Part shown: one piece after another, positions 5,423 through 61,419 of the stretch | Position numbering within the stretch: the first letter of the stretch is position 1 | Layout of the letters: every line of letters begins with the position of its first letter | Origin: a phage | DNA: 64,000 nucleotides | Strand: one strand, 5' to 3' | NCBI GenBank assembly: GCA_026066175.1 | Contig: GCA_026066175.1_4721.1 | Position numbers and translations under genes: made by a program | Notes under the pieces: generated by a model | Database searches by the model: none | What the model was told of the DNA's origin: nothing | Seen by the model: only the letters and a program-made list of their open reading frames with translations

Positions 5423-5962
5423 TTACTGTTGGTTCTTAGCTTCACGAATGAAAATGACATCAGGGTATTCTTGGGATTCAATGAATTCAGGATTACGATA
5501 ACGACGAATATGACGCATTGTCGTACAAGCAAGTTTGTAAAGATGTTCCTCCTCACGTTGTGTTAATAACATCAGTTGCGCGTCTGGAATCACGAATGGG
5601 AGTCTTTCATTCACGTATTCCCGAAGGTCATCGAGATCATCGTGATGAATGCCCTCTGAGAGCTTATATAACGCTTCCAGCAATTCTAATCCACCGAACT
5701 GGTAACTTCCTATTGTCGTCTTAAACAATGCGCCAGAACGCGTGGTGGATGCTCTATCGGCGACATCGTATTGTTCTAACATATATCCGTAGACCATGCT
5801 ACGTCGATCCAGTGTATCCGTAACGAGATTACGCCACCGTTCCAGTCTTTCGAGCGCTTTGTCGATAGAGTAAACGATCATGCCATGTTCATCCAACTCT
5901 TCCGCAATACCCAATAGTTCATTGTTGTTAGGTTTTGCTGCACCGATAAGAAAAACACTCAT
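5423..5962 (-). CDS. hypothetical protein
   Basis: 179 aa ORF; start ATG overlaps the stop of the upstream gene (TAATG), suggesting translational coupling. Confidence 0.65.
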   Translation of the reverse strand: MSVFLIGAAKPNNNELLGIAEELDEHGMIVYSIDKALERLERWRNLVTDTLDRRSMVYGYMLEQYDVADRASTTRSGALFKTTIGSYQFGGLELLEALYKLSEGIHHDDLDDLREYVNERLPFVIPDAQLMLLTQREEEHLYKLACTTMRHIRRYRNPEFIESQEYPDVIFIREAKNQQ

Positions 5963-11985: not shown

Positions 11986-12218
11986 TACTGCGCTCCCTCC
12001 AACGCGTTGTTACGTACCGGCTCTTTGGTTTCCAGACGGCTGTTCAAGCGCGCAGCAACCGCATCTTCCAATCCCAACGGCATAACCTTTTTATTCACAT
12101 CAGGATCCGCTGCATCGTTACCGACGGTCTGACGGACGACCTCAGCAACCAACGTTACCGCGTTCGTCAGCGCAACAAAGCTCGCTGCCCGAGCCGTATT
12201 AAGTTGTTCTTGGTTCAT
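11985..12218 (-). CDS. hypothetical protein (77 aa)
   Basis: Short ORF from track, first gene after the terminator hairpin at 12253-12278; 1-nt overlap with the downstream gene. Confidence 0.45.
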   Translation of the reverse strand: MNQEQLNTARAASFVALTNAVTLVAEVVRQTVGNDAADPDVNKKVMPLGLEDAVAARLNSRLETKEPVRNNALEGAQ

Positions 12219-12252
12219 TCACTTTTCCTTTACCACGTTCAGCGAAATAAAT

Positions 12253-12278
12253 GAGCAGGGGCATAACGCCCCTTGCTC
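12253..12278. terminator. hairpin terminator after the RNAP beta-like fragment
   Basis: GAGCAGGGGC-ATAAC-GCCCCTTGCTC stem-loop, followed by a U-rich tract on the minus-strand transcript, directly after the stop at 12279. Confidence 0.55.
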
Positions 12279-13409
12279 TTATTTGGCTTCATTAAAATAA
12301 ATATCAACGGCACGTTCCGTTGCGTAGAGAAGACCCAGATTCACGGTCCCTACCACTTCCGGTGAACCGATGATACGGTTAGCGATACTGGTGCCACTGA
12401 AGATAGCATCAAGGGTGTGCCCGTCTTCGGTTTTGTTCACACCATGACCCACGGAAGAGACAACGGATTTCGCCTGTGCGGCGAAGGTACCTTTATCCCC
12501 CATTCCCGCACCAAGGTCGTAACGCATGAAAATACGGATCGCGATCTGGTTCTCACCTAACGGATTACCGTCTATTCTCACGTTACTGTTATTGATGCGT
12601 CCCGTTGTTGCTTCGTTGAGTTTCAGTTCCTTAACACGTTTAGCTCGCGCCTTATCAGCGTCACCCACAAGTGCTGCCATGGTTTCGCTCATGTCTTCAA
12701 TCTGAGCGCGGTACAACACATCGATCTGTACGACTTCACCATGCACGTCAGCGCGTGGGTTATACTGACTCATACGGCGTAACGCTTCAACCGCTTCCTG
12801 ACTTTCATCGCTCAGATCGGTTGCAATAGGTTCTTCCAGTGTTGCCAGGATCGTCCGAGGTTCAACATGATCGCCGATTTTCACCAAACCACGAATGTTG
12901 AGATGAGCGTCAACAATGAGCGTACGGCTCTTAATCGATGGGGTTACGAGACGATCGGCAAGATTGTCGAAGATATACGAACTGTCCTCGTGCGTTTCTG
13001 GAATATCCAGAATACCAACCAGAGACAACACGCCTGCGCGCCAAACAACCTGACCTGGGTTCCACCAATCCCGTTTAAAATAAAGACGATGGAAAACCAC
13101 TACATCCTGGTCCTTAACGCGATCCCCGACTTTATAATCGGTAATGAGATCGTGAGGATAATACTTACCTGGTCCTTTCCCGATTATCGTACCGAGTTGG
13201 AAAACCTCTTCCCCTAATTCTGGATCGTCGTATTGTATCGTAAGCGCTGTTTTGGTGACCTTCTTCACAACACCATCGCCTTGAGCAGCTGCTGCGAAGA
13301 GTTTACCAACACGATGCGCGATAACAGTCTCGCCACCAGTGCGCCATGGTTGTACGTCGTAACCTTCAGCGGCTATCATGCGGTTGTGTTGGATGCCTAT
13401 AAACACCAA
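12279..13409 (-). CDS. multisubunit RNA polymerase beta-like subunit, central fragment (possible downstream exon)
   Basis: By-eye alignment to bacterial RpoB: FIGIQHNRMIAA resembles the conserved ANRALMG segment; IRIFMRYDLGAGMGDKGTFAAQAKSVV resembles [26 protein letters not shown]. Track start is TTG with no SD and the frame is open for 8 codons upstream, consistent with an exon. Not database-verified. Confidence 0.5.
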   Translation of the reverse strand: MVFIGIQHNRMIAAEGYDVQPWRTGGETVIAHRVGKLFAAAAQGDGVVKKVTKTALTIQYDDPELGEEVFQLGTIIGKGPGKYYPHDLITDYKVGDRVKDQDVVVFHRLYFKRDWWNPGQVVWRAGVLSLVGILDIPETHEDSSYIFDNLADRLVTPSIKSRTLIVDAHLNIRGLVKIGDHVEPRTILATLEEPIATDLSDESQEAVEALRRMSQYNPRADVHGEVVQIDVLYRAQIEDMSETMAALVGDADKARAKRVKELKLNEATTGRINNSNVRIDGNPLGENQIAIRIFMRYDLGAGMGDKGTFAAQAKSVVSSVGHGVNKTEDGHTLDAIFSGTSIANRIIGSPEVVGTVNLGLLYATERAVDIYFNEAK

Positions 13410-13733
13410 TCTCTTGGGCGAATTTAGTTCTTATTCAGTATTAACATACCGTTACCGAAATAAGACTGAGATTAGATTGTTCAGATAAGGTCGTTAATCT
13501 TATCCCGGAGGTGATGATAGGCACATCACCTCCCGCTTACGTTCTCACGCAAGAGCAGACTATATCACATCTCGTTTCAAACGGTGCTTCTTCAGCACCT
13601 CAACGAGAGTTCACTTCTTCCCAGCGCATCCAGCGCCATTCTCTTATCCAAGGAGAATGCCTCACTCGAGGGGTACAGGGGGATGAATCCCTTAGTCGTT
13701 GAACCGTCACCCTAGAACGTTTCACAACGATCC

Positions 13734-14945
13734 TTAGGCGATTGGCTGCGGATTACCCTTGGCCTGCGGACCACGAACTTTTGTCGCGGTCAACTCTTCA
13801 TTTTTAAAGCCTGCTTCACGAGCAATACGTCTCGCTTCTCGCACGTCTAACGTTTCCGTTTCCGCTTTGGCTGAAGGCAGCATTGGGCGTCCCCGCAATT
13901 CAATGAATCTCGTCCATACGTCACCGTATAAACGGACCCGCTCTTTGTAAACAGAATAGTAGATATAACGTTTTCCGTCAGGAAATTTAGTCATTCCATC
14001 CGACTTTAAACGGTAATTGAGTAACGTAGTAGATATACCCATTTCTTCAGCGCAATCGACGGCCGAAAGGTACAACAGAGGTACATCATTTTCAGGAATG
14101 ACGACAATAGCACGTTTGTTGGTTGTCTTCTCCAACTCCAGGATACTATCTTCGACTTCTCGCCATGGCGTCTCATCAGTAACCCACTTAACTTGATAAC
14201 AACCATTAACGACAGGTTGGTTCTTGTCGTTAACGTACATCGACGCAGTGGATAACTTAACACCAATGTGATTCGCGAATTCAGTCAATGATTCGAAAAG
14301 ATGAATCTCTTTTGTTATCGTTGACCTTGCAATCACACCCTTACTTCCCGTATCCGTCAACGTTGCTAACTCGTATTTGGTGGGAATACGCCATGGTTCA
14401 TCGCCGTAATCTTTGCGGTACTGCTTACGTTCAGGAAACGCTCGCTGTTTGCCTCTATAGACACGATGATGAATGAAGTCGATATTCACACCAAGATCGC
14501 GTGCCGCTTCCGTCATGGATGGATATCTGGTTACAACACCGGTATCAACATCACGAACCTGAATAGGTTTACCGTAGGCAGCAATTGAACGTTTACGCAT
14601 GTTCATAATGCGAGCATGCTGATTGTTCTCTTTCTGCGTAACCCATTCAAGATTGTCATTCTCGGCGTTACCGTCGGGATCAAGGTAGTTATTAAGTCTG
14701 TTGCCGTCCTTGTGGTTCACATGGAGCAAATGCGCATCATCGATGTTACGGAACGTTAACATTAGAAGCCTGTGCATGGAACGGTAAACCAATGTTCCAT
14801 CGTGACCTCGAAACGAATAACGATAATACCCAGCAATGATGGTGGGCAAATATTCAAACTTCGATTCCTTGTTACGCAATGTTCCATCTATGGATATCTC
14901 CAGGAACGGGAATTCCGGTACGGTCTTAAATACCTTCTCACTCAT
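13734..14945 (-). CDS. HNH homing endonuclease with NUMOD-like DNA-binding repeats
   Basis: HVNHKDGNRLNN...NLEWVTQKENNQHA HNH motif near the N-terminus; three helix-turn-helix-like repeats (TEAARDLGV, TEFANHIGV, VDCAEEMGI). AAGAGGAA SD before the ATG and a TATATTAC-type motif ~45 nt upstream. Confidence 0.8.
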   Translation of the reverse strand: MSEKVFKTVPEFPFLEISIDGTLRNKESKFEYLPTIIAGYYRYSFRGHDGTLVYRSMHRLLMLTFRNIDDAHLLHVNHKDGNRLNNYLDPDGNAENDNLEWVTQKENNQHARIMNMRKRSIAAYGKPIQVRDVDTGVVTRYPSMTEAARDLGVNIDFIHHRVYRGKQRAFPERKQYRKDYGDEPWRIPTKYELATLTDTGSKGVIARSTITKEIHLFESLTEFANHIGVKLSTASMYVNDKNQPVVNGCYQVKWVTDETPWREVEDSILELEKTTNKRAIVVIPENDVPLLYLSAVDCAEEMGISTTLLNYRLKSDGMTKFPDGKRYIYYSVYKERVRLYGDVWTRFIELRGRPMLPSAKAETETLDVREARRIAREAGFKNEELTATKVRGPQAKGNPQPIA

Positions 14946-14985
14946 TGACTATATTCCTCTTGTGCAGTGAAACTAACTACACTTT

Positions 14986-14997
14986 CGTAATATAGCC
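14986..14997 (-). promoter_or_regulatory. candidate early promoter motif upstream of the HNH gene (GGCTATATTACG on the transcribed strand)
   Basis: Plus-strand CGTAATATAGCC in the 75-nt gap between the beta-like ORF stop and the HNH start. Confidence 0.4.
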
Positions 14998-15020
14998 TTA
15001 ATTCTGTTTACATTGAAGCC

Positions 15021-18000
15021 TTAATCATCTCTATCAGCAGCAGGTACTGCAAGTGCTGATGTACTCATTATTGACGAGCTACCATCCGTTTTCTCGTCGT
15101 AGGGTTTCGTTTCACCGTATACAGACACAATGTTTGCGTTAGGTGCGAGGTAAGCAGAAATACCTACGTCCCCACTATCCTTCGTACCTTCGGATACAAC
15201 ACCAATGTCCGACTTGTCGTACTCACGATCGCGTGCGCGTCGAAGCGATGTTTTCGAACGACCCCCGATACCGGTCATCGTTGCTTCTTCACCCTGCTTG
15301 ATATCCAGCATCGGGTTGGTTTCATCGATGACGATAGAAGCACTGTCGTCAAGGATTTGGTTCCAAACGCTCACCGGACTGATTGAGATCTTCTGTCGGT
15401 TGCCTTGGCTGCTGTTCTCGTTTTGACGAATAGCACCAACCAGATCCTTATACACCAACTCAGCGAACTTATCGTACGTTTTGAAGCGCTGGTAGTTCAC
15501 GTCGTTCGTGTTAGGTGCCCAATCGTCCAGAAGCAGTTCAACCGCACGTAATAACAACATGGCGAAATCAGTCGGTTCGCCCATGTTCTGTAATAACGTA
15601 CGACTTACCGGGTCGACGAAAAGACGCTCCATGAGTTCAAGTTCGCGAAGATGACGAACCTTAAGACCTGCACCATCGACAACGTTAAAATAGATATCCC
15701 GATTGTCGAAAGCACCTCGAGCGTAACCAATGTAGTTACGGTATTCGTTGAATCCGCCTAACAACAATGTCGTCATTCGATCATCTTTACTGAAGATCAA
15801 ACTTTCATCGTCGAAGCTCACCGCGAATTCATCCGATGCTAATCCCATACGAGAACCACGAGGTACCGTACGGTAGTTCGCTTTAAGATGTTCTAATAAC
15901 GGTGTAAGACCACCTAAGTAACTTAACACAACACCAACCGGAATACGTACGCCCATGAACTCAAGGTCAGCGGCTTCGATGGGCATCTTCGCGGCATTGA
16001 TACCGAAGAAATCAGGGAACGTTCCAACCGGCGTTGGGGTTTGATTCGGTTCGTAAACGTATAACTGATTCTGACCATCCACCGCCAGGAATTCGCCGTT
16101 GGTGTTTTTGGCGAACGTTAAGAATCCACCCGCCAGCTGTTCGGTGAATAAATCTTCACCGATGTGTTCCGGCAACGTTTTGATATCGAGGCGTATGTCC
16201 CAATCCGCAAATTGGATTTGGGTGTAGTTACGTGCAAGCACCGCGAAGTAATACGGAACTTTGACAGACGGATCAAAGACGTTACCACGTTTTAAGGTGG
16301 TTAAGGGCGAGGTTTTATCGTAATACATCGCTGTGAGTTGACGTGTTAACCAACGACCAGCATTATTAACCACGCGTTCTGAACGCTTAACGAACACCTT
16401 ACCGTAGGCGGTACTCAACGCAACTTCGGATGACGATACCTTTCTGATTGGTTTATCGACACGTTGTTTACGCATTCGATATTTAATGCCGTTAACGACA
16501 TAAATGCCGTCCTTACGAACCTTCGGTAACATCACCGGGAACGTGGTCGGAACACCGCCTACCGGAGCCAGCTTGATCGTGATGACCTGGTAATCACCCA
16601 TCACGTCAACAACATCTTCAACTTTATATCCGGTAACAGGATAGCCCGCTTGCTGCACCGCCACAACGGCTGCTGCGATGTCCTTTTGCATGACATGTTC
16701 GACGTAGTGTTTATCCCATACGGCAAGCGTCGATTTGCACAAGCTCTTATCAACGATAACGTCCGCTTCCGGCATCACCTTCTCAGGTGCTAATTTCGCG
16801 GCTTTTGGTTTAACCTCAACGTATTCAGCAAGCGTGAGTCCAGAACCGTCAGGTGCTTCAATTTCATGAATCGCGTCAGCGTTACGCATCGCTGCTTTAT
16901 ATTGAACGCCGCTTAATTGACCAGCATCCGCGAGGTCGCTTGCACGTACCAGCACTGCATCGGATAACGACTGAATATATTCACCGTGCGTTTTCGGTAA
17001 CGTTGCCGCATCGAAGACATCAACTTTTTCTTCCGGCATGTCATCGTTGACAACCTCAAAGAGATCATCGGTGATGTCTTGATCTTCGTCCGGTTGAAAA
17101 TCGGGCTGAACTTCAACGCCAGGGACTTCACGAACATCTTCAAACGCACGTTCAACAACCGCGTTCCATGCTTCAGCGTCGTCATCTTCATCCGATCCTC
17201 CGATCAACTCGCTTTCCAGTTCATCGGGGTCAAGAACGGTATCAAGGTCCTCACCGTTAGGAAGCACGACATCACGTTCATCGTACTCCGCATCGGGACT
17301 GTCTGCGAGAATATCACGCTCTTGACGAAGAACCTGCTCCTCTTCTTGTTTCTGTTCTTCTTCATTGGCGCTCTGCGACCACAGACGGGTTACCGCCATC
17401 ATCCAACGACGCTGGAACGTTTCAAGCGTTGTCTTATCAAGTTCCTCGCCTTCCTTCGCTAAACCCGAACGCCATTCTTCCATTAAACCAAGATTCAGAG
17501 TAAAGAAATAGACGCCGTCCGTAAATACAACGTTAAGCTTATCCAGCGAAGCACGGTCCAATGATACCATCGTGCTGTTCTCACGATCGACACCTAACCA
17601 ACGGAAGAAGTCAAAGAACGACAGCTCCTCGGAGGTGGCAAAATTCATGAGGTTATTACGGGTTGGGGCTTGTTGTGTCGTACGCATCAACGATATCTTC
17701 GGTAACGTCGACGGGATACGGAATAACAAGAACTGCTGACGGTCGCTTTGTTGGGCGATCTCGTTTGCTTGCGTCCAAATCGTTTTACGCACGTTGAACC
17801 ATTCATCATACCAACGGGTCAGTGTCGGACGATAGATGTACATGTGGTTAAGATGCGCATAGTTAGCCACGATCTGGGCGTTGATGTTCTTCTCAACCTT
17901 GCTAAGATCGGTGACCAAACGAAAACGACGATGCGATGCACGGTAATCCAGTTTCGCACGCGGTAGCTGGAATCGCTGATCGCGTCGAGGTGCGCCTTGC

Positions 18001-28931: not shown

Positions 28932-28967
28932 AGCCCTCCTCCTTCCCTTCCGGGTTGGAGGAGGGCT
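28932..28967. terminator. GC-rich hairpin (AGCCCTCCTCC-TTCCCTTCCGGGTT-GGAGGAGGGCT), bidirectional terminator candidate
   Basis: 11-bp inverted repeat between convergent genes 26776..28917 (+) and 28972..30039 (-). Confidence 0.6.
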
Positions 28968-41148: not shown

Positions 41149-41775
41149 ATGGCTGTAACACGCATGACGCCAAGTCCCGGCGCGGTCGGGGTATTCACAG
41201 TATCAGCGCCGTTCTCCGTTGGTGCATCAACGTTATATACCGTTACAGCGTTGCGAAGATTCAGCGAAGTCATCGGTAGTGGAATCGATCTATTTACGGA
41301 ACTATACGAACCGTTATCGATAGACAAATCCACTTTCGAAGCGCATCTTGAAGCAAATGCTTATCTCGTCACGTTACAGCCGGATTATGGTGCGCCAGTA
41401 CTGGTACCAGATACGTATATCACGTCGTACCCAAAGAACGATTCCTTACGGTATCGTCGCATTATTCTGGGTATTGATTTCGGGCCTCTTCCTCCCGGTC
41501 TTGACCTTTCGTATTTAACAACGATATTGAAAGGTAAAGCCAGTGATATTCTTGGTGTCGAACCTGAAGTTAAAACGATGGAAATCACTCTCGATGATAC
41601 CGTTACGCAGGAACAACATCAGATAAACGAAGCCCGTCGTCAGGCCGCGATAAAAGAGCGAGATACCATATACGCACGCTGTGAAACGCAAGAGAAGCAG
41701 ATAACGGCTTTGCTTGCAACCCAAAAGCAACTTATCAAATTGCTTCAAGACGCCGGTATCAATCCGACACCTTAA
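41149..41775 (+). CDS. hypothetical protein with C-terminal coiled-coil-like region
   Basis: Start ATG with GGAGG SD immediately after the upstream stop; followed by the hairpin at 41782-41813 and an A16 run. Confidence 0.6.
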   Translation: MAVTRMTPSPGAVGVFTVSAPFSVGASTLYTVTALRRFSEVIGSGIDLFTELYEPLSIDKSTFEAHLEANAYLVTLQPDYGAPVLVPDTYITSYPKNDSLRYRRIILGIDFGPLPPGLDLSYLTTILKGKASDILGVEPEVKTMEITLDDTVTQEQHQINEARRQAAIKERDTIYARCETQEKQITALLATQKQLIKLLQDAGINPTP

Positions 41776-41781
41776 CATATT

Positions 41782-41813
41782 CCCTCCTCCTTCCCTTACG
41801 GGTTGGAGGAGGG
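41782..41813. terminator. GC-rich hairpin (CCCTCCTCC-TTCCCTTACGGGTT-GGAGGAGGG) followed by A16
   Basis: Perfect 9-bp arms; the inner loop can itself form CCC/GGG around a UUAC (GUAA on the opposite strand) tetraloop; between convergent genes. Confidence 0.6.
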
Positions 41814-53828: not shown

Positions 53829-54242
53829 TCAAATTCCTTCTTTCAAAATCTCATTAAGGCCGTCTGCAACCGCGTCCAAATGGGCATCCATATCCGTTAC
53901 GGTGCCAGCGGTAACTGTCCAGACGTGCCGTATTAATGTCTCACCATTCGTACATTTTACCATTTCCATCGCCAACTTTGTTTGTCCTGACGATGGTGAG
54001 ATCTCATTGCTCCGCCAAAACGCAGCCTCGAGTAATGTTTTACCTAACGCTGTACACACAAAAGTAAATTCTACTTGACCAATACCTACCACCGAAGCGG
54101 ATAACGGTTGGATATGTTCGCGCAGCTTATCATCTTCACGTAGGAGCAGCAGTGTACGATGTAAGTGTGTACGGTGGGTAACAATAGCGTCGTAATGACC
54201 GATGCGTACATCGGCTACTGATTCAGGCCAGTTAATTTTCAT
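53829..54242 (-). CDS. small paralog family A protein (137 aa), unknown function
   Basis: See shared motif F-x-F-x-x-T-x-x-GK-x-[LI]-[LI]-x-x-x-[FV]-W; starts 2 nt after the upstream gene. Confidence 0.55.
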   Translation of the reverse strand: MKINWPESVADVRIGHYDAIVTHRTHLHRTLLLLREDDKLREHIQPLSASVVGIGQVEFTFVCTALGKTLLEAAFWRSNEISPSSGQTKLAMEMVKCTNGETLIRHVWTVTAGTVTDMDAHLDAVADGLNEILKEGI

Positions 54243-54257
54243 GTTCGATTCCTCGTA

Positions 54258-54701
54258 TTAACACTGTGTTCCATTCGATAAGCGGGTGGTATCAAAACGA
54301 TCCAGTTGGTGTACAATGCTATTAGCAACACGATGCAAATAGTGTATTTTGTCCATTCGTGAAATCGCAGAAATCGTCCAGCAAGCCTCTGACGTCCAAT
54401 AGGTGCCGTCTTCACTAAGGCTAACGTTATAAACTAACTTCGTCATCACATTTCTCGCCTTATGCTCAGCAGACCAGAATATGTTTTCTAACACATCCTT
54501 CCCCGTTTGTGAAAACACGAACCCAAGCTTCACGTCGAAGTCGGATGCTTCAAGATTAACAAAGTGAAGATGATTCTCCAAAGGCGCAAAAGAGGCTAAA
54601 CGTTCCAGCGCGTTTTGCAGCGTGGGATGATCGAGCTTTTCGAGATCATCCACAGGTTGTTCAGGTACAATCGCGATCGATTTACAGAATTTAATTTCCA
54701 T
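54258..54701 (-). CDS. small paralog family A protein (147 aa), unknown function
   Basis: Shared motif as above. Confidence 0.55.
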   Translation of the reverse strand: MEIKFCKSIAIVPEQPVDDLEKLDHPTLQNALERLASFAPLENHLHFVNLEASDFDVKLGFVFSQTGKDVLENIFWSAEHKARNVMTKLVYNVSLSEDGTYWTSEACWTISAISRMDKIHYLHRVANSIVHQLDRFDTTRLSNGTQC

Positions 54702-54731
54702 GGTAGGTTCCTCTTGATAGATGGTAGTAAC

Positions 54732-54751
54732 GGGGATACCGCGGTATCCCC
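54732..54751. promoter_or_regulatory. perfect 20-bp palindrome GGGGATACCGCGGTATCCCC within the operon
   Basis: Read directly; in the 57-nt gap between 54759..55229 and 54258..54701. Confidence 0.4.
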
Positions 54752-54758
54752 TAAGTCT

Positions 54759-55229
54759 TTATAACACGCCCCAAGCCATATTGGGTACAGGCTCGTTACG
54801 TTCGATGTAATACATCAAGCGTTCTTTAAGTTTGGTTAACGCCTCAGCAACGATGTTCTCCATGGCAATCACCTTTCCAATGTAATCCATGGTATCCTGC
54901 CACGTAAACCATTCGACGGTATTGACGATGTAAAGGGTTTCATCGTCGTCGGTCATGACCTTGGCATTTTCACGATGATCGCGGGTCGCGTATAACGGTG
55001 TTTTTAGATTCGCTCTGATACGTACCCAGAGCTTCTCCAGGAAATCGCTCGGTTGACTATCTGTCGTGATGATAAGTTCACTCCGTACTGAACGCTCTCC
55101 ACGCTTTTCAATAACAAGTAAACCATCGTAAGTGATGTTCATCAAGTTACGAAGGTCATCATTGCTATTCCAGTCTTTTACAACAGCAGGAAGTTGGCTA
55201 TTGTACTCTTCAGGTAATCTCTTAAGCAT
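54759..55229 (-). CDS. hypothetical protein
   Basis: 156 aa ORF; 8-nt overlap with the upstream gene. Confidence 0.55.
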   Translation of the reverse strand: MLKRLPEEYNSQLPAVVKDWNSNDDLRNLMNITYDGLLVIEKRGERSVRSELIITTDSQPSDFLEKLWVRIRANLKTPLYATRDHRENAKVMTDDDETLYIVNTVEWFTWQDTMDYIGKVIAMENIVAEALTKLKERLMYYIERNEPVPNMAWGVL

Positions 55230-55674
55230 CGGTTTCTGCTCCTATATCACGTTTGAGTTCGGCGACCAGTTTGTCGTAATGGTCTTTTATCACATTCGCC
55301 ATAACGAATTGCGCTTTTCTCACTAGCTGCTCATTGGCATCACTGAATGTAAAATACTCTCGCACTTCAACCGGATGTGATACGCCACCGATATCGTAGG
55401 CTTTATTCGATGTGCGTTGAGCGATCACTGGGAGCGGTTTCGCGGCGTTCAGCGCAGTACAGATTTCCGTAACGAGTTCTTGAATTTGGCTTTTCCCTTC
55501 GATGATAACGCTGCAACGATAAACATCCACCTCGTTAAGTTGTTCAACAACATCCGCCTTGATTTTGAATTGACCTACAAGCGCGCTTACTAAAGTGCGG
55601 TGCCAATTGTTCACCACTCCAACCAGCAATGGATGATTCTCAAGATCTCTTCTGTTCATTTCTGAGCTCCTCAA
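55222..55674 (-). CDS. hypothetical protein
   Basis: 150 aa ORF. Confidence 0.55.
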   Translation of the reverse strand: MRSSEMNRRDLENHPLLVGVVNNWHRTLVSALVGQFKIKADVVEQLNEVDVYRCSVIIEGKSQIQELVTEICTALNAAKPLPVIAQRTSNKAYDIGGVSHPVEVREYFTFSDANEQLVRKAQFVMANVIKDHYDKLVAELKRDIGAETDA

Positions 55675-55697
55675 TCGCTCTATAACAAACTTTTAGA

Positions 55698-55720
55698 GGA
55701 AGGGAATATGTTTCCCTTCC
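55698..55720. promoter_or_regulatory. hairpin GGAAGGGAA-TATGT-TTCCCTTCC within the operon
   Basis: Perfect 9-bp inverted repeat in the gap between 55739..56014 and 55222..55674. Confidence 0.4.
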
Positions 55721-55738
55721 TTGAGTTAGTTTATTGCG

Positions 55739-56014
55739 TTATACAACTTTTCTGTGCGCGTAGAACACCTTCGTTCCGTTGTTGATCGCCTCAACCACAT
55801 CCAGGGTTAACACAACGGCGTTATCGCTTCGCGACGACGGTGCGTAATACCCTTCACCGTTCTCGGTAATCAGGCGATAACGGACTAAGCCTATACATGG
55901 TTCAACGCGTACCACTCTTTCGAGTTTGTACTTGATGATCTTCGTCAGGCCGATAGTCTCTGATGCGTAGATGGCTTTATAAACTTTGTTCTTTGCTGTC
56001 GTTTTCATCAACAT
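55739..56014 (-). CDS. hypothetical small protein (start uncertain)
   Basis: ORF track 55739..56083 overlaps the 3' end of 55977..56873; trimmed to an internal ATG (MLMKTTAKN...), leaving ~38 nt of overlap; weak SD. Confidence 0.4.
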   Translation of the reverse strand: MLMKTTAKNKVYKAIYASETIGLTKIIKYKLERVVRVEPCIGLVRYRLITENGEGYYAPSSRSDNAVVLTLDVVEAINNGTKVFYAHRKVV

Positions 56015-56873
56015 GGTTTCTGTTTTCCTTGGTTTGTTGTGGTCCCAGGTCAGAGATATCCCAACGGATATAACCAACATCACGGATTCGCTCGGCTATT
56101 TCTTCGAATTGTGAATCACGACTGATAACCGGTAACCATTCCCCTTCTCGGGTTATCTTAACTTCGGCGATCTGTAAGCTCATGTTCCAACGAACGTCAT
56201 AAACCAGCGCGTAACCAAGAGGATGAACAAGCCCATCCTGGTTATACATCTTCAAAAGACCTCTTACGTCTTCGCTGCGCGGTAATTCCGCCATAGCAGG
56301 ACGTACACGTTGAAGTCTCTTTGTGGTATCGTATCCTAGCTCAATATCTTTCCAGCCCGTCATGACGTAAGGAACAACGTTGCGGCGACGGAGTTGATGG
56401 TTGTGAGTGGTTTCTTCGGCGGTAAGGTGTACCCAACCGAGATCGCTGTACGCCACGAACCGCGCTCCTTCTCCATCGAGCACTGTGTGCTCATCTAACG
56501 CTGCTGCAACACCATGGCCTGCGTAATACGGCGGAAGAACGTTCAGCATTTTAATACGGCTTTCTTGACCGGTATGGTCAGGGTCGATATGCGCGTAGTA
56601 ATAATTACGGCTTACCGGACGACCTTCCGCCATACGTCCACGGAAGACAGGGTCCTGCATTCCAAGCGGATGGTAATACGCGAGCTGTTGTTCGTCACCT
56701 TCCCCGATGACCAACAAACGATCTTCACGACTTGGTGTGCTAGGATCTTTCACCGTGATGTAGGTAACAATCACTTTCAGATTGTCTAAAATGTCCTGTG
56801 GAAGTTTCTCTAAATCCCGTGCGTCGTAAATACGATTAACAACAACGTTTGCAATGTGTTTTGGTAAGCTCAT
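55977..56873 (-). CDS. paralog family B protein (298 aa), unknown function
   Basis: Shares blocks with three upstream paralogs: AYYHPLGMQDPVF, GWVHL, VVPYVMTGWKD, KRLQRVRP, GLVHPLGYALVYDVRWN, WLPVIS, GYIRWDISDL. Confidence 0.6.
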   Translation of the reverse strand: MSLPKHIANVVVNRIYDARDLEKLPQDILDNLKVIVTYITVKDPSTPSREDRLLVIGEGDEQQLAYYHPLGMQDPVFRGRMAEGRPVSRNYYYAHIDPDHTGQESRIKMLNVLPPYYAGHGVAAALDEHTVLDGEGARFVAYSDLGWVHLTAEETTHNHQLRRRNVVPYVMTGWKDIELGYDTTKRLQRVRPAMAELPRSEDVRGLLKMYNQDGLVHPLGYALVYDVRWNMSLQIAEVKITREGEWLPVISRDSQFEEIAERIRDVGYIRWDISDLGPQQTKENRNHVDENDSKEQSL

Positions 56874-56953
56874 TTTAGATCTCTCTTTGTTATTGGTAAA
56901 ATAAATAACGGCATAAAGGGGACATAACTGCCCCCGTGTTAAATATCAACTGT

Positions 56954-57796
56954 TCACGCTTTCAGATCTGAAATATCCCAACGTACGTAACCGGTACGCT
57001 CAATGTCGTCAACCAGTTGCTTGGTTTGATTTTCAACACCAACGACAGGCACCCAATTTAAACGCCAGCGCCCACCGACATTAACCTCAACACGCTGCAG
57101 ATCTTCATTCCAACAAACCCCATTCGGTCTCAAAAAGCCCATCGGGTGGACGAAGTCCTCATCGTAATCTTTCAATAGCGCGAGAATATCGCTTCGGCTA
57201 TAAGTCTTCACGCTTGCTAGATGTACGCTTTGTAGCTTATCGCGCAGACCCCAACCATACTCACAATCACGCCATTCAGGCATGACAACCGGCAGTACAT
57301 TCCGATGACGGATGTATTTTGCCGCTTCAGCAATATCAGCTGGAAGATGTATCCAACCTAAATCGCTGTTAGCAATAAAATCAGGACTGTCCATTTCATG
57401 GATGTAATGATCGTAAAGCGTAGCAGCGAGTCCTTCAGCAAGCACGTTTGTTGGAAGGAGGCAGTTGGCGCTTATCTTGAAATCGAATACATCGGCATCA
57501 GGATCCACATACGCGTAAAACCCGCGTGCGAAAGCGCCGCCATGTTCTTTGAAGCAGTACTGGAATACATTGTTTTGCATTCCGATGGGGTGGTAGTAAG
57601 CCAACACACGTTGTTCGCCGTCCGTGATTTCAATGAGCTGATCTTTCGGCTTCGGCCAGGTGATCTTCTCAACACCGCAAACGCTGACGATCTTTCGTAG
57701 ATTCACCTTGATATGTTCCGGGAGATGCCCGATTTCATTTTCATGATAAACACGGGTGATAACGGTATTGATAACCGGCTGTGGTTTAGCTATCAT
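56954..57796 (-). CDS. paralog family B protein (280 aa), unknown function
   Basis: AYYHPIGMQNNVF, GWIHL, VLPVVMPEWRD, DKLQSVH, FVHPMGF, WVPVVG, GYVRWDISDL; GAGGAA SD. Confidence 0.6.
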   Translation of the reverse strand: MIAKPQPVINTVITRVYHENEIGHLPEHIKVNLRKIVSVCGVEKITWPKPKDQLIEITDGEQRVLAYYHPIGMQNNVFQYCFKEHGGAFARGFYAYVDPDADVFDFKISANCLLPTNVLAEGLAATLYDHYIHEMDSPDFIANSDLGWIHLPADIAEAAKYIRHRNVLPVVMPEWRDCEYGWGLRDKLQSVHLASVKTYSRSDILALLKDYDEDFVHPMGFLRPNGVCWNEDLQRVEVNVGGRWRLNWVPVVGVENQTKQLVDDIERTGYVRWDISDLKA

Positions 57797-57836
57797 TTAT
57801 CGTTTCCTCTTCGTTTTGTGGTTATTGATATTCGTA

Positions 57837-58703
57837 TTACGGTTTAAGATCTGCGATGTCCCAGCGGACATAGCCAACACGTTCGATTTCGCGAGCAAGG
57901 TCTTCGTTGTGAACGTCTACCCCAACAACAGGTAACCAGTTCCCATCTTTGCTGATCTTCACATGAACGATGTTTTGCGAAGTGATGAACTGATTAACAT
58001 CGTGCACCAACGCATAGCCTAACGGATGGATAAAGCCTTCAGCGCAGCATGAATCACGAAGAACGCTCAACATGTCGACGGCTGAAGGGCTAACGCAACG
58101 GACAGGGCGTACGCTTTGCAATTTGTCGGATGCCGCTTGGGCAACGCGTGCATCACGCCATCCCGTCAAGTATACCGGTTTTATATCCCGTTTTAGTAGA
58201 TGTTCGATCTGGATCGCTGTGTCATTATGAACATACACGCAGCCCTGTTCGGTTTCGGTGTCGTAGTCACCTTCATTAAACGCGTTTATTCGGGCAGGAT
58301 AAACCTTCTGGTCTATCGTCACGGCAACCCCTTCAGCGAATGTGGTCAACGGAAGAAGACGTTCTAAACACGCGATTGGATAATCCGCTGATGCTCCAGG
58401 ACGAATATGCGCCAGCATTCCCCAACCATCAGGGAATCCATGTCGGTACATGTATTGCTGGAATACCTCATCCTGCATTCCTAACGGGTACCAGCGTGCA
58501 AGCCGCTGCTGCTCACCGTCCTGAATAACAAAAAGCATTTCTTTGCGTTTAGGCCAGCGGTGATGTTCTACGGCCAAGCCCTCAACGATCGGTTTCAAAT
58601 TGGCTTTGATATGCTCAGGAAGTTGATCCACCTCTTCACGACGATAAATACGATCGATGAGGGTAACGTCGATCTTCTGGCCCATCATCTGCATTAAACT
58701 CAT
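57837..58703 (-). CDS. paralog family B protein (~288 aa), unknown function
   Basis: ORF track 57837..58844 trimmed to ATG (MSLMQMM...) with AGGAG SD; ARWYPLGMQDEVF, PVYLTGWRD, DKLQSVRP, FIHPLGYALVHDV, WLPVVG, GYVRWDIADL. Confidence 0.6.
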   Translation of the reverse strand: MSLMQMMGQKIDVTLIDRIYRREEVDQLPEHIKANLKPIVEGLAVEHHRWPKRKEMLFVIQDGEQQRLARWYPLGMQDEVFQQYMYRHGFPDGWGMLAHIRPGASADYPIACLERLLPLTTFAEGVAVTIDQKVYPARINAFNEGDYDTETEQGCVYVHNDTAIQIEHLLKRDIKPVYLTGWRDARVAQAASDKLQSVRPVRCVSPSAVDMLSVLRDSCCAEGFIHPLGYALVHDVNQFITSQNIVHVKISKDGNWLPVVGVDVHNEDLAREIERVGYVRWDIADLKP

Positions 58704-58770
58704 TTTTATTTCTCCTGCTGTTTTACGATGCATCGTTTTGCTCCTGTGGTTCTTTGTTTTCGGTATCGTG

Positions 58771-59523
58771 TTATGCCTGGCGTAGCATGGTAACGTCCCA
58801 TCGTACCAGCTTGCTTCGCTCAAGCATCCCCTGCGCATGCGCAACGCTTAAGTCCGACGGCACCACCACCGGCAACCAACGTTCGTTAAGCACCTTCGCT
58901 TCCAGCCGCTGCTTGCGTTTGTTGTAACGCACCTCGCTAACCCATGCATAACCGAAAGGATGGATAACCCGTAGGTAGTAACGTTTCAGCATGGCAAGAC
59001 GTTGCTGATAAAGCATATCGGAACCTGCGCTGACGAACAAGGCCACCCGTTCCAACCGCCTGGTGTAATACGTTCCAACGGTATGGTTGATCCAACCCGG
59101 AAGCACCAGTTCATCAGGCGTATCCGCCCATGAGGTATCGTGCACCTCACCGCTATACACCGTCCCAGTCACCTGGCCCGATGCGTCCAACAACGACCGT
59201 GGTAAATCATCCGCGGTAGGATACAACCATGCATCATCAAGTCGCTCCCCCGATGCAAGCACGCGTAACCCGCTTGCGCTTACCCGCGATGGATGCTGGC
59301 TCTTATGCGCACGCAATGACACCACAGACAGATCCGTTGGATGAGCAAGACAACACCCCCGCTGACGGAATAACCCAACCGTACCATCCACCCCTTCGAT
59401 CATGCTTCCTTCCAAACCGTCCCACCAGTAGTTTACCTGCACGCATTCTGCTTTCACTGCCTCAGGCAACAGTAAATAGTCACGTTCAATGAACACGGTA
59501 TCAAAAATGATTTTATCGCTCAT
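58771..59523 (-). CDS. paralog family B protein (250 aa), most diverged member
   Basis: VIHPFGYAWVSEVRYN, WLPVVV, LVRWDVTML align with the other three; AAGGAA SD; first gene downstream of the motif at 59608-59622. Confidence 0.55.
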   Translation of the reverse strand: MSDKIIFDTVFIERDYLLLPEAVKAECVQVNYWWDGLEGSMIEGVDGTVGLFRQRGCCLAHPTDLSVVSLRAHKSQHPSRVSASGLRVLASGERLDDAWLYPTADDLPRSLLDASGQVTGTVYSGEVHDTSWADTPDELVLPGWINHTVGTYYTRRLERVALFVSAGSDMLYQQRLAMLKRYYLRVIHPFGYAWVSEVRYNKRKQRLEAKVLNERWLPVVVPSDLSVAHAQGMLERSKLVRWDVTMLRQA

Positions 59524-59607
59524 GGATAAAGTTCCTTGTTTTCACGTTGTTTGATTAACGTACTGATTTCTATTTGACAGAAGACGAACATTGTACGCAT
59601 CTATCAC

Positions 59608-59622
59608 GTAAGTAATATAGCC
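59608..59622 (-). promoter_or_regulatory. candidate early promoter motif (GGCTATATTACTTAC on the transcribed strand)
   Basis: Plus-strand GTAAGTAATATAGCC, ~90 nt upstream of the start at 59523; 20-mer TAAGTAATATAGCCGTGAAA is identical to 44343-44362. Confidence 0.45.
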
Positions 59623-59734
59623 GTGAAAGGATTTGTATTACAGAAAGGATATTTGTTTTCTAAGAAGGGATGGTTACCAGGAAGGAGGTTATCGATAGGT
59701 GTATTTCAAGGAAGGTTTAAGAGGATAGGTATTG

Positions 59735-59905
59735 TTGTTTTGTTTATCTTAGTTTGTCTATGTATTCGTTTAATGTGTTATCTTAGTTTTAATGATCTTT
59801 TCAAAAGTGTTATCATGTTTATCTTAGGTTATATTTTAATTGCTTTAAGTTATTTGTTTTATCTATCTTGTTATCTTGTTTAAGTTGTTAATTGCTTATC
59901 TTCAA
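59735..59905. repeat. cluster of at least 8 direct repeats of TTATCTT(A/G) in an AT-rich noncoding region
   Basis: Copies read at ~59745, 59779, 59805, 59819, 59860, 59865, 59872, 59894; embedded in a ~800 nt region with no credible ORF. Confidence 0.5.
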
Positions 59906-60335
59906 AACAATGGATAACATGTGTTTACTACAACTTCAGTAACACATGTCATCTGTGCATTACACTACGTTACATGCTTATAATCAGATAACTCTAAAAA
60001 ACCATTTGTGATACTCTTCTTCACGTTGTTCATCAGAGTATCTCGTCTACACTTGCTTCGCGCGTATACGACATCACCGTTAACGCTAACGCTACGCTTA
60101 TAGCTTATAACTCTAAGGATAAAAACATAAACTCGCTTCGCTCGTTTAGTTTTTCTTTTTCTTAGAGTTATCCTGTTGCTCGTCTCTAAAGGACTTCGCT
60201 CCTCCCCCGTCCCCCGAAGGGGCCGAGGTCGTGGAAATTTTACTTTCCAAATACATTTACAACGTCTGTAAACTTTTACCGACACATACCTAATCTTATA
60301 TTTAAATATTAGAAAAAGAGAAAATACGAACATAA

Positions 60336-60367
60336 CCCTCCTCCTTCCCTGATGGGTTGGAGGAGGG
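60336..60367. terminator. GC-rich hairpin (CCCTCCTCC-TTCCCTGATGGGTT-GGAGGAGGG)
   Basis: Perfect 9-bp arms, immediately downstream of the stop of minus-strand gene 60385..61278. Confidence 0.55.
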
Positions 60368-60384
60368 GATAACAGTCTATTTAA

Positions 60385-61278
60385 TTAATCGGAAGTGTTA
60401 TAACCGAATACTGCTTTACCGTAGGTGTGAGTACCATCACTTAGTGACAATACCAATACGTGGTTATACGCATCGTTAACACCCTTGTCGGTAGAATCGG
60501 TGGTAACACCGTTGTAGACAAAGGTAGCTGATTGCAGATTGGTTTTCAGTTCATTGATGATATCATCACTTACACCAGTCTGCTCTTTAATCAGAGTAGT
60601 CAGGTTACCTGCTAAGCTTGCGTCGAGATTTACTTCGTTGCCAGTAATAGCTTGTAAACCTGAAGCGTAAGTACTGAAGTCTAACGGATAGGTTAACAGA
60701 CGTGCTGACGTTTTGGTACCATTGCCTTCATCAACGTAGGTTAAGTTACCCAGGTTGGTAACCTTGATGATGTTAGACAGATCCAGCGTTGTGTTATAAA
60801 CTTTAACTTGAACAGAACCATACCAAGCCAACGAATCTTCTTTGGCTTCCAGGGTAACGGTTTGGATACCTGACTGATCAAAGGTAACGGGATTAGATAA
60901 CGTTTCAGCTTTGATGTCTTTTGTTTTATCCAGGAACTTCTCGCCGGAAGGCGTAACCATACCGTAGCGTTGAGCTACGAGGTCGACCACGTCACCGATG
61001 GTGGTGTTTGCTTCAACACTAACGCGCACCGCGATCTTCTGGAACCATTTAGCCAGATCCAGACGATGATAGGTGACATCGCGGGTATTGAAGTACGGTG
61101 TACCATCACCCGGACTGAGTGTTAATGTTGCTGCACTATCAGAATCGCTTTTGGATTTAAGAACGTATTTGAGATCAGTGTATTTGAAACTGGCTCCCGT
61201 ATCGGCGTTAAGCTGGTTGATCTCATCAACGATAAGTTGCCACGGTGTTTTCAAAGTAAGTGATACTCGACTTGTCAT
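60385..61278 (-). CDS. hypothetical protein; distant paralog of 61420..61962
   Basis: 297 aa ORF with GAGGTAAAAA SD; segment GIQTVTLEAKEDSLAWYGSVQVKV resembles VGQVTLNAIENGLVYTGTLQVAL in the divergent neighbour. Confidence 0.6.
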   Translation of the reverse strand: MTSRVSLTLKTPWQLIVDEINQLNADTGASFKYTDLKYVLKSKSDSDSAATLTLSPGDGTPYFNTRDVTYHRLDLAKWFQKIAVRVSVEANTTIGDVVDLVAQRYGMVTPSGEKFLDKTKDIKAETLSNPVTFDQSGIQTVTLEAKEDSLAWYGSVQVKVYNTTLDLSNIIKVTNLGNLTYVDEGNGTKTSARLLTYPLDFSTYASGLQAITGNEVNLDASLAGNLTTLIKEQTGVSDDIINELKTNLQSATFVYNGVTTDSTDKGVNDAYNHVLVLSLSDGTHTYGKAVFGYNTSD

Positions 61279-61419
61279 TTTTTACCTCGATGGTTGTTAC
61301 ATCACTCTCAAAAGATGTAAATGTTTACAGAAAATAATATATTTTATATTTAATGTAAATGATATGGAGAACGACTCCGAATCTCCTTTTCGACCATCAA
61401 AATCAGAGGACACACAGTC

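Follow-up and report, generated by a model that had tools for sequence, protein, structure and literature searches.

The gp021-gp022 intergenic gap

The stretch of phage DNA analysed here (NCBI GenBank assembly GCA_026066175.1, contig GCA_026066175.1_4721.1; 64,000 nucleotides, hereafter the window) comes from a relative of Escherichia phage vB_EcoM_Goslar, a nucleus-forming jumbo phage (Goslarvirus, Chimalliviridae). Its largest intergenic gap, of 861 nucleotides (nt) at positions 59524-60384, lies between two minus-strand open reading frames (ORFs): 58771..59523, encoding a gp021-like early protein, and 60385..61278, encoding a gp022-like DUF7941 virion protein. Judging from its sequence, this gap is a composite control region on the minus strand, read from right to left, rather than one repeat region, and it contains a hairpin-rich element of ~290 nt, Module 1, which is the main subject of this study.

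Based on a blastn search of 50,697 phage records that included a "distant" mode, the sole match to the gap region was Goslar, with a gap identity of 78.8%. The Goslar genome (NC_048170) has an equivalent, unannotated gap of ~850 nt between gp021 and gp022 (14,972-15,825). The initial annotation of the window had described a noncoding region without a credible ORF, and this description held: the gap separates the two flanking ORFs, and the ORFs inside it, of 86 amino acids (aa; plus strand) and 122 aa (minus strand), are not conserved, the maximum in Goslar there being 36-69 aa. Because they are absent in Goslar, and because 1-nt indels disrupt the 122-aa frame, a protein-coding function of the two ORFs was rejected.

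The gp022-like protein has 70 homologues with 50-97% identity in public data. Public sources (IMG/VR, ENA and JGI metagenomes, Logan assemblies, and assemblies of Salmonella, E. coli and Shigella) provided 19 distinct Goslar-like genomes, whose gaps we aligned; the constraint figures below derive from 12 genomes (66 pairs), and the RNAalifold consensus derives from 16 distinct sequences. Three IMG/VR scans returned the same 3 contigs each time, a JGI scan added 7 further close relatives and 2 chance matches, and a 21-mer spanning the junction had no match in the GTDB genomes. Since the homologue searches found only close relatives, the covariation analysis could not be deepened. Read from right to left, the gap contains the following parts:

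60336..60367, minus strand: terminator hairpin of the gp022-like gene, CCCTCCTCCAACCC-ATCA-GGGAAGGAGGAGGG, with a U-rich tail from 60335 to 60318
60282..60299, minus strand: promoter-like block, ATAAGATTA(R)GTA(Y)(S)TG, adjoining Module 1 on its 5' side
59996..60286, minus strand: Module 1, ~290 nt with nine predicted hairpins, delimited by conservation
59894..59985, minus strand: Module 2 hairpin, an inverted repeat with arms 59953-59941/59925-59913, a variable loop and the tail CAUUGUUUUGAAGAUAAGC
59730..59905, minus strand: zone of 176 nt, A-rich on the minus strand and T-rich on the plus strand (22% GC; 57% T on the plus strand), with dispersed AAGATAA (TTATCTT on the plus strand)
59625..59730, minus strand: polypyrimidine zone with CCTTCC, CCTCCTTCC and two copies of ATCCTTTC, in direct repeats; AGGA-rich on the plus strand
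59598..59628, minus strand: early (virion RNA polymerase) promoter, TTTCACGG-C-TATATTAC-TTAC-GTG, with its core from 59619 to 59612
59524..59597, minus strand: 5' leader of the gp021-like gene, the first early gene, recognized from sequence and conserved in relatives

Constraint and predicted structure of Module 1

In the RNAalifold consensus, the closing helix and hairpins P1-P4 form a 5' domain, which is followed by P5, P6, P7 and P8. The elements of Module 1 are given below in this order; all were predicted with RNAalifold, except for the 3' end, which was recognized in the sequence:

60286-60283 with 60175-60172, minus strand: closing helix H0
60273-60255, minus strand: hairpin P1
60249-60232, minus strand: hairpin P2
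60228-60205, minus strand: hairpin P3, with a cUUCGg loop
60204-60189, minus strand: hairpin P4
60171-60107, minus strand: hairpin P5, of 24 bp, with the tip AAAC-GA-GC-GAA-GC-GA-GUUU
60101-60073, minus strand: hairpin P6
60072-60045, minus strand: hairpin P7, with a hypervariable tip
60042-60010, minus strand: hairpin P8, with an invariant 17-nt loop
60001-59996, minus strand: 3' end, ACAAAUGG and a U5-9 run

Three of these hairpins share a common design, consisting of a stem, tandem G.A pairs, 2 bp and a GNA triloop. Several motifs listed in the initial annotation find their place here: its three CTTCGC sites (~60055, 60135 and 60194) are the tips of P4, P5 and P7, its GC hairpin at 60189-60230 corresponds to P3 plus P4, and its TAACGCTAACGCTACGCT tract is present at 60081-60098, the TAACGC tract being P6. 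Conservation has a sharp 5' edge, following the promoter-like block, and a sharp 3' edge, formed by the U-run, past which the relatives carry a variable stretch with inserted hairpins in some of them; in L011 and L022, the hairpin CAACGTTTTG-TGAAGA-CAAAACGTTG is inserted just after the U-run.

Module 1 has a mean identity of 96.9% (minimum 94.3%) among the 12 genomes, while in the same set the gp022-like coding sequence is 80.5% identical (66.6% at third positions) and the nearby endolysin gene is 88.1% identical (73.9% at third positions). The element is ~10 times more constrained than neighbouring synonymous sites, and these comparisons indicate purifying selection above the neutral rate. 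None of the 19 Goslar-like genomes lacks it. Most of its differences are confined to the tip of P7, and this tip and the loop of Module 2 have diverged at up to 7 of 11 nt; there has been enough time, and enough mutation, for change, so that the remaining invariance is attributed to selection and not to recent ancestry.

The consensus structure comprises 85 pairs in 12 helices, with 99.5% of the cells paired, and the covariation score of Module 1 was reached in none of 500 shuffles. Three pairs show double compensatory changes, two of them in the P7 tip (AU<->GC via GU, and CG<->UA) and one in the closing helix, and five more show single changes of the G.U type. The 2-bp stem and the triloop of the P7 tip are retained through the double changes, and a double-stranded DNA site would have no need of such compensatory changes. 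By comparative sequence analysis, Module 1 is noncoding, extremely constrained and hairpin-rich, and it largely keeps its pairing where its sequence varies.

The minimum free energy (MFE) of Module 1 is -91.7 kcal/mol. Based on several characteristics of the alignment, a reading of the element on the minus strand is favoured. One-sided transitions in stems led to G.U pairs in 7 cases and to A.C pairs in 2 when read on this strand; the consensus structure contains 90 G.U cells versus 2 A.C cells; and the alifold energy is -79.0 kcal/mol on the minus strand versus -62.3 kcal/mol on the plus strand. Additionally, the cUUCGg tetraloop and the C(GAA)G triloops read correctly on the minus strand only.

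The promoter-like block is the sole conserved block between the terminator and Module 1. It closes a short AT-rich spacer, is found in both of the haplotypes of which the Module 1 of the window is a mosaic, and occurs once in the window. Compared with the early promoter TATATTAC-N4-NTG, it shares 5 of the 8 core bases and the same spacing to NTG, and it may have promoter activity. Module 1 also contains a 36-aa ORF (60256 to 60146), present in the window and in Goslar and lacking a Shine-Dalgarno sequence. This ORF is unlikely to be coding and probably persists only because the sequence is invariant.

Module 2, the repeat zones and the flanking signals

The Module 2 hairpin has a fold energy of -25.8 kcal/mol (z = -2.79). 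Most relatives retain it and L006 has lost it in a clean deletion, so that it is optional. A G.U pair in its stem, and an A->G change in L007, are compatible with the minus strand only. An 11-nt duplication, TAACGAAGTGA, lies within Module 2 of L012 and L022. No complementarity between the P7 and Module 2 tips, as for a loop-loop contact, was seen by eye in the aligned tips.

In the A-rich zone, TTATCTT occurs exactly five times (59744, 59778, 59819, 59871 and 59896), always in one orientation, and four of these copies fit TTATCTTR. The initial annotation had counted at least eight copies of TTATCTT(A/G), a number reached only with mismatches: allowing one, there are 7 copies of TTATCTTR or 10 of TTATCTT. 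Nevertheless, the array is non-random, since 0.27 copies are expected from local dinucleotide shuffles and five copies were obtained in none of 5000 shuffles. The zone is the least conserved part of the gap, with ~55% identity to Goslar and many indels. The comparison with related phages that had been suggested at the outset separates the two components: the hairpin-rich element is near-invariant, while the TTATCTT array drifts, with 2-5 copies of AAGATAA at shifting positions. A type III antitoxin-like or other tandem array was rejected because the copies are dispersed and not tandem.

The initial annotation had taken the repeats as possible replication-origin, packaging, partition or regulator sites. 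This idea rests on the TTATCTT array, which is weakly conserved and has shifting copies. The zone shares with iteron origins, partition sites and regulator arrays the short repeats in one orientation, the AT-rich noncoding context and an adjoining promoter. Unlike iterons, with their units of ~17-22 nt, its units measure 7-12 nt, are irregularly spaced and are conserved neither in number nor in position; the longest unit (12 nt) has 3 copies spaced 34 and 41 nt apart, and the 7-nt core is spaced 25-52 nt apart. Also unlike iteron and partition systems, no adjacent initiator or ParB-like gene was recognized. The composition of 59730-59905 (22% GC) is that of an AT-rich unwinding region.

The polypyrimidine zone lies directly upstream of the early promoter, has a plus-strand GC skew of +0.6, and is ~85% identical to Goslar, with an indel of 16-29 nt. 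A plus-strand transcript from this AGGA-rich zone, for example a CsrA-type sponge, was rejected because the gap has no conserved plus-strand promoter and the five early promoters of the window are all on the minus strand. Sigma-70 promoters in the gap were likewise rejected, as they show no excess over chance and the TATAAT and TTGACA sequences are not conserved. The TATAAT box reported initially at 59974 is present at 59979-59984 and has no conserved counterpart in Goslar.

The region had also been described as bracketed by a candidate early promoter and a hairpin terminator. Both are present, at 59612-59619 and 60336-60367, but both are on the minus strand and belong to two flanking transcription units. 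The terminator hairpin begins 17 nt past the gp022-like stop codon, has 14-nt arms that are 86% complementary and is followed by the tail UUAUGUUCGUAUUUUC; a GC-rich hairpin and then a U-tract directly downstream of a gene are the characteristics of an intrinsic terminator. It is kept in all relatives, and a consensus terminator scan missed it because of an internal 2x2 mismatch in the stem. Near-identical hairpins occur at other gene ends (41774-41813 and 28934-28965). The family follows the pattern CCCTCCTCC...GGAGGAGGG, and the Goslar GenBank record opens with such a hairpin. Logan short-read contigs (L014, L015, L021 and L023) stop 39-47 nt past the gp022-like gene, within the terminator hairpin. 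A packaging site or genome end was rejected at this point because the breaks lie inside a repeated palindromic terminator and full-length contigs place the locus at arbitrary positions; the contig ends look like assembly breaks at a repeated palindrome, not genome ends.

The early promoter, located 89 nt ahead of the start codon at 59523, has all of the characteristics of chimallivirus early promoters and matches the consensus of phiKZ and 201phi2-1, TTTRARR-B-TATATTAC-DWHD-GTG (PMC7058600, Table 2). The window contains five copies of TATATTAC (7084, 14987, 31238, 44347 and 59612), all on the minus strand and with the common extended context G(G/A)C-TATATTAC-N4-NTG, by which we take them to mark early transcription units, all transcribed from the minus strand. 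The likeness to chimallivirus early promoters explains only the left edge of the gap, the block upstream of Module 1 matching no more than 5 of 8 core bases. In L006, a 43-nt insertion (~5700-5745) duplicates part of the early promoter.

The 5' leader carries the ribosome-binding site AAGGAA of the gp021-like gene (59537 to 59532, minus strand). Its 11-mer AACAACGTGAA (59541-59551, minus strand) recurs in the invariant loop of P8 (60020-60030, minus strand); since both are in the same sense, they would serve as a common binding site, not as pairing partners. The leader copy lies just upstream of the ribosome-binding site, and Goslar shares only AACGTGAA of it. The gp021-like protein is 42% identical to its Goslar counterpart, and its AlphaFold model (predicted local distance difference test 55.8) is too low in confidence for a fold search. 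No Pfam or PHROG domain was found in the four early proteins downstream. The early operon downstream (53865-59433 in the window, 12131-14881 in Goslar) is hypervariable, several genes having no blastn match, and the regions flanking it are 86-94% identical to Goslar. On the other side of the gap, gp22 is among the most abundant virion proteins of Goslar (bioRxiv 10.64898/2026.04.21.720040).

Candidate functions of the region

As the E. coli model of the nucleus-forming jumbo phages, Goslar has had its biology described almost wholly through proteins, and the literature searched describes no noncoding RNA (ncRNA), replication origin or cis-regulatory element for it. As a whole, the gap is best explained, in a reading that we prefer but hold tentatively, as a composite region in which Module 1, with or without Module 2, would be the gene of a stable structured ncRNA. 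A structured ncRNA had been only a secondary idea of the initial annotation; owing to the ~290-nt constrained, hairpin-rich element, it is now better supported than the lead idea of repeat sites.

We infer the transcription of Module 1, its ends and its mode of action as follows. A phage RNA polymerase would start at the conserved ATAAGATTARGTA block and proceed leftward, and the 3' end of the RNA would lie at the U-run that follows P8 or beyond the Module 2 hairpin. The RNA would act in trans and bind protein, which is proposed with low certainty, based on loops and junctions as invariant as the stems and on the three hairpins of common design. The contact surfaces would be these three G.A/GNA-triloop hairpins, the invariant 17-nt loop of P8 and the junctions, which would account for the equal constraint on unpaired and paired bases. 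Outside the RNA, the AAGATAA array and the pyrimidine zone would be upstream architecture, in the form of protein-binding or curved DNA, of the early promoter TATATTAC that drives the downstream early operon.

Phages encode several stable structured ncRNAs, including the phi29 pRNA, the T4 species 1 and 2 RNAs, and GOLLD and ROOL. ncRNAs have also been reported for phiKZ and PA5oct (PMC13282480, PMC7318152). Like phage ncRNAs, Module 1 is intergenic, untranslated, hairpin-rich, a few hundred nt long and conserved in one phage lineage, with a promoter-like block and a U-run at its flanks and the same strand as its neighbours. Unlike them, it matches no Rfam family, theirs included, is far more invariant in sequence than usual and was found in Goslar-like phages only. 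A scan of 59450-60450 with cmscan (Rfam 15, E<=10) gave zero matches, the only match in the whole window at the gathering threshold was a group I intron at 13536-13959, and ARAGORN found no tRNA or tmRNA; on these grounds, a known RNA family was rejected. A host-derived sequence or mimic was rejected as well, since blastn returned nothing from 5,426 E. coli genomes and 72,556 plasmids. The element would thus be new as a family and known in kind. Its strong constraint and its presence in every Goslar-like genome found, among isolates, metagenomes and bacterial assemblies, imply that it must do something important, and, if it is an RNA, it would be a new family with a possible role in takeover, RNA export or timing. 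In practical terms, the comparison provides an annotation for the 850-nt "empty" gap of NC_048170.

Several observations weigh against an RNA gene. The covariation rests on three pairs, 68 of the 85 pairs being invariant, and is statistically thin; five changes break pairs (column 16, columns 15/127, 207, 227 and 237/251), and the P7 hairpin is remodelled in L013. At the divergence observed, the absence of any compensatory change in the 24-bp P5 and in P2, P4 and P8 is odd for a simple RNA and would also fit sequence-specific DNA recognition, as would the arrangement of P5 and P8 as inverted copies of GATA(A)CTCT and the 12-fold excess of GATAAC over local shuffles in the gap. With respect to the strand, the MFE z-scores are alike (-4.25 on the minus strand and -4.09 on the plus strand), and the asymmetry of 7 versus 2 transitions is merely suggestive (one-sided binomial ~0.09). 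The U5-9 run lies 8 nt past P8 and not within the 0-2 nt of the stem that define an intrinsic terminator, and the transcription, the RNA ends and the promoter are all deduced from sequence. Finally, an nhmmer profile found no Module 1 at the gp022 locus of the relative with 50% gp022 identity, where the locus only was searched. This genome (L009; Logan SRR33371455_8208, a 101-kb contig) is the sole more distant relative found. The 374 nt after its gp022-like gene hold just a terminator abutting the early promoter TACATTAC, and its thymidylate kinase-RuvC-SbcC block is inverted relative to Goslar.

The main rival reading is a replication origin primed by a transcript or a hairpin. Transcript-primed origins include ColE1 RNA II, T4 oriF and oriG, the T7 primary origin, and the mitochondrial light-strand promoter (LSP)/conserved sequence block II (CSBII). 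By analogy, a transcript starting at the promoter-like block would run through the G-rich Module 1 and form a persistent RNA-DNA hybrid, GCGAAGC-type mini-hairpins would hold the displaced strand open, and an RNase H-processed 3' end would prime synthesis; the adjacent AT-rich zone would be the unwinding element, and AAGATAA/GATAAC the initiator sites. We consider this scenario unlikely, as we do its more specific form, in which Module 1 and the AT-rich zone would be a jumbo-phage origin with an R-loop pre-primer processed by the Rhc polymerase subunit; if correct, it would provide the first handle on the start of replication inside the phage nucleus. The order of the parts agrees with it, as the promoter-like block is followed by a structured segment of 290-400 nt with G>C and GGGGGACGGGGGAGGAG and then by the 176-nt zone with 22% GC and repeats of one orientation, the local skew flipping sharply at ~59,895. 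The AT-rich zone retains composition and motif, not sequence, as unwinding elements do; the invariance of both helix arms suits a function at the DNA or hybrid level; and Module 1 is present in a single copy, the nhmmer profile having detected no second one in the window. According to PMC13648698, Goslar replication requires Rhc, the RNase H-clamp subunit of the phage DNA polymerase, and this need, a dependence on RNase H activity as in transcript-primed origins, is consistent with an origin. Mini-hairpins of the GCGAAGC type are documented at the G4 primase site, at RSF1010 ssiA and at the N4 hairpin promoters (PMC13037366), and, like these, the minus strand has two exact GCGAAGC and one GCGAAGU, each capping a longer stem. 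Unlike the known mini-hairpin systems, GCGAAGC is not enriched in the window (9 copies versus 7.3 expected); in Goslar, one of the three tips is replaced by AUGCAAU. Furthermore, the chimallivirus virion RNA polymerase uses double-stranded TATATTAC promoters, unlike the N4 hairpin promoters. Unlike transcript-primed origins, the region has no antisense regulator and the G-run of Module 1 is sequestered in the predicted hairpin P3, and the cUUCGg loop is a signature of RNA rather than DNA. The GC-skew check proposed in the initial annotation revealed no replication-type inflection here at window scale. The repeats measure only 7-12 nt, lie at irregular distances of 25-52 nt and differ in number, the adjacent genes have no recognizable initiator, primase or DNA-binding domain (the gp021-like AlphaFold model being unusable), and the literature searched reports no mapped origin for any chimallivirus.

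Alternatively, the gap may be a double-stranded DNA regulatory array, in which phage proteins would bind dispersed GATAAC/AAGATAA sites and palindromes (TTTACA-N5-TGTAAA, GATAACTCTAAG...CTTAGAGTTATC and GATACTCT...AGAGTATC), the hairpins being inverted binding sites, and would control the early promoter, the neighbouring late genes or both. GATAAC/GTTATC does occur 8 times in the gap, where local shuffles give 0.64 copies and the rest of the window has 1.2 per kb. The arms of the helices are constant and show no compensatory change, and copies of AAGATAA persist between drifting spacers. Three of the four exact copies of TGTAAATG in the window lie in P1 and in the divergent promoter region of gp022/gp023. 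Nevertheless, the P7 tip and the Module 2 stem keep their complementarity through compensatory or G.U changes that double-stranded DNA binding does not need, the inverted repeats are spaced 17-43 nt apart, more than ordinary operators allow, a near-invariant stretch of 290 nt, loops and junctions included, far exceeds the needs of short sites, and no DNA-binding protein was identified nearby, which makes such an array distinctly improbable. We give still less credence to a cis-acting RNA, in which transcripts reading through from gp022 or from a Module 1 promoter would carry Modules 1 and 2 and the zones downstream of them as a long leader or 3' extension, which would silence or time the translation of the early operon late in infection through the anti-Shine-Dalgarno-like CCUCC/CCUUCC or through alternative pairings of three GAUAACUCU/AGAGUUAUC copies. 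All of its parts share a strand and precede the early operon; one copy of GAUAACUCUAAG has two possible partners, a neighbouring copy and a distal one past the U-run, of which the MFE structure of the window sequence takes the latter; CCUCCUUCC matches the anti-Shine-Dalgarno sequence of 16S rRNA and might base-pair with the ribosome-binding site AAGGAA; and the 11-mer AACAACGUGAA is common to the P8 loop and the early 5' leader. However, a canonical promoter belonging to the early operon itself lies downstream of all of these elements, a strong terminator lies ahead of Module 1, the CCUCCUUCC segment is absent in Goslar-type relatives, and the distal AGAGUUAUC copy is degenerate in several relatives. 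Least of all do we expect the region to lack a dedicated function, as a recombination scar, a remnant of a recently spread mobile element or a sequence conserved on account of the 36-aa ORF. The gap does divide a conserved late module from a hypervariable early one, as is typical of a recombination junction, and the mosaic of two haplotypes in the window, the 36-aa ORF shared with Goslar and the absence of the element at the locus of the 50% relative could all be read in this way. Against it stand the presence of the element in all 19 genomes, the selected invariance outside the diverged P7 and Module 2 tips, and the lack of terminal repeats, a transposase or a second copy; the ORF itself covers 111 of ~290 nt, has no Shine-Dalgarno sequence, shows nonsynonymous changes at 2 of its 4 variable sites and is called as a gene on only one public contig.

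GATAAC/GTTATC has 86 copies in the whole window, ~2.7 times the random expectation; those in the gap lie in Module 1, in Module 2, in the repeat zone and beside the terminator. The TGTAAATG copies mentioned above are located in the gp022/gp023 divergent promoter (61316-61336 and 61354-61361, plus strand) and in P1 (60254-60273, minus strand). This promoter region also has a conserved TGTAAA-TG-TTTACA palindrome beside a TATGG late-promoter-like motif, and P1 has TTTACA-N5-TGTAAA.

The tip of P5 contains a 19-mer, AAACGAGCGAAGCGAGTTT (60130-60148, minus strand), with more than 120 exact matches in GTDB genomes versus ~4 expected by our own estimate. In Neisseriaceae (Neisseria, Kingella and Eikenella), it lies beside sequences resembling the DNA uptake sequence (DUS), often in 24-nt tandem arrays, and the variants CGAGCGCAGTGAG and CGAACGCAGTGAG of the phage P7 tip recur in Neisseria arrays. 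The copies in Clostridia, myxobacteria, Treponema, Saccharibacteria and several archaea are mostly found at the top of longer hairpins particular to each genome, in some cases right after tRNA genes. No Rfam family covers this hairpin cap. Being so widespread, the cap is a generic, very stable module and not a phage-specific one.

Elsewhere in the window, the group I intron (Rfam RF00028, 51.4 bits; 13536-13959, minus strand) lies between ORFs 12279..13379 and 13734..14945, and the gene around it is probably split by this self-splicing intron.

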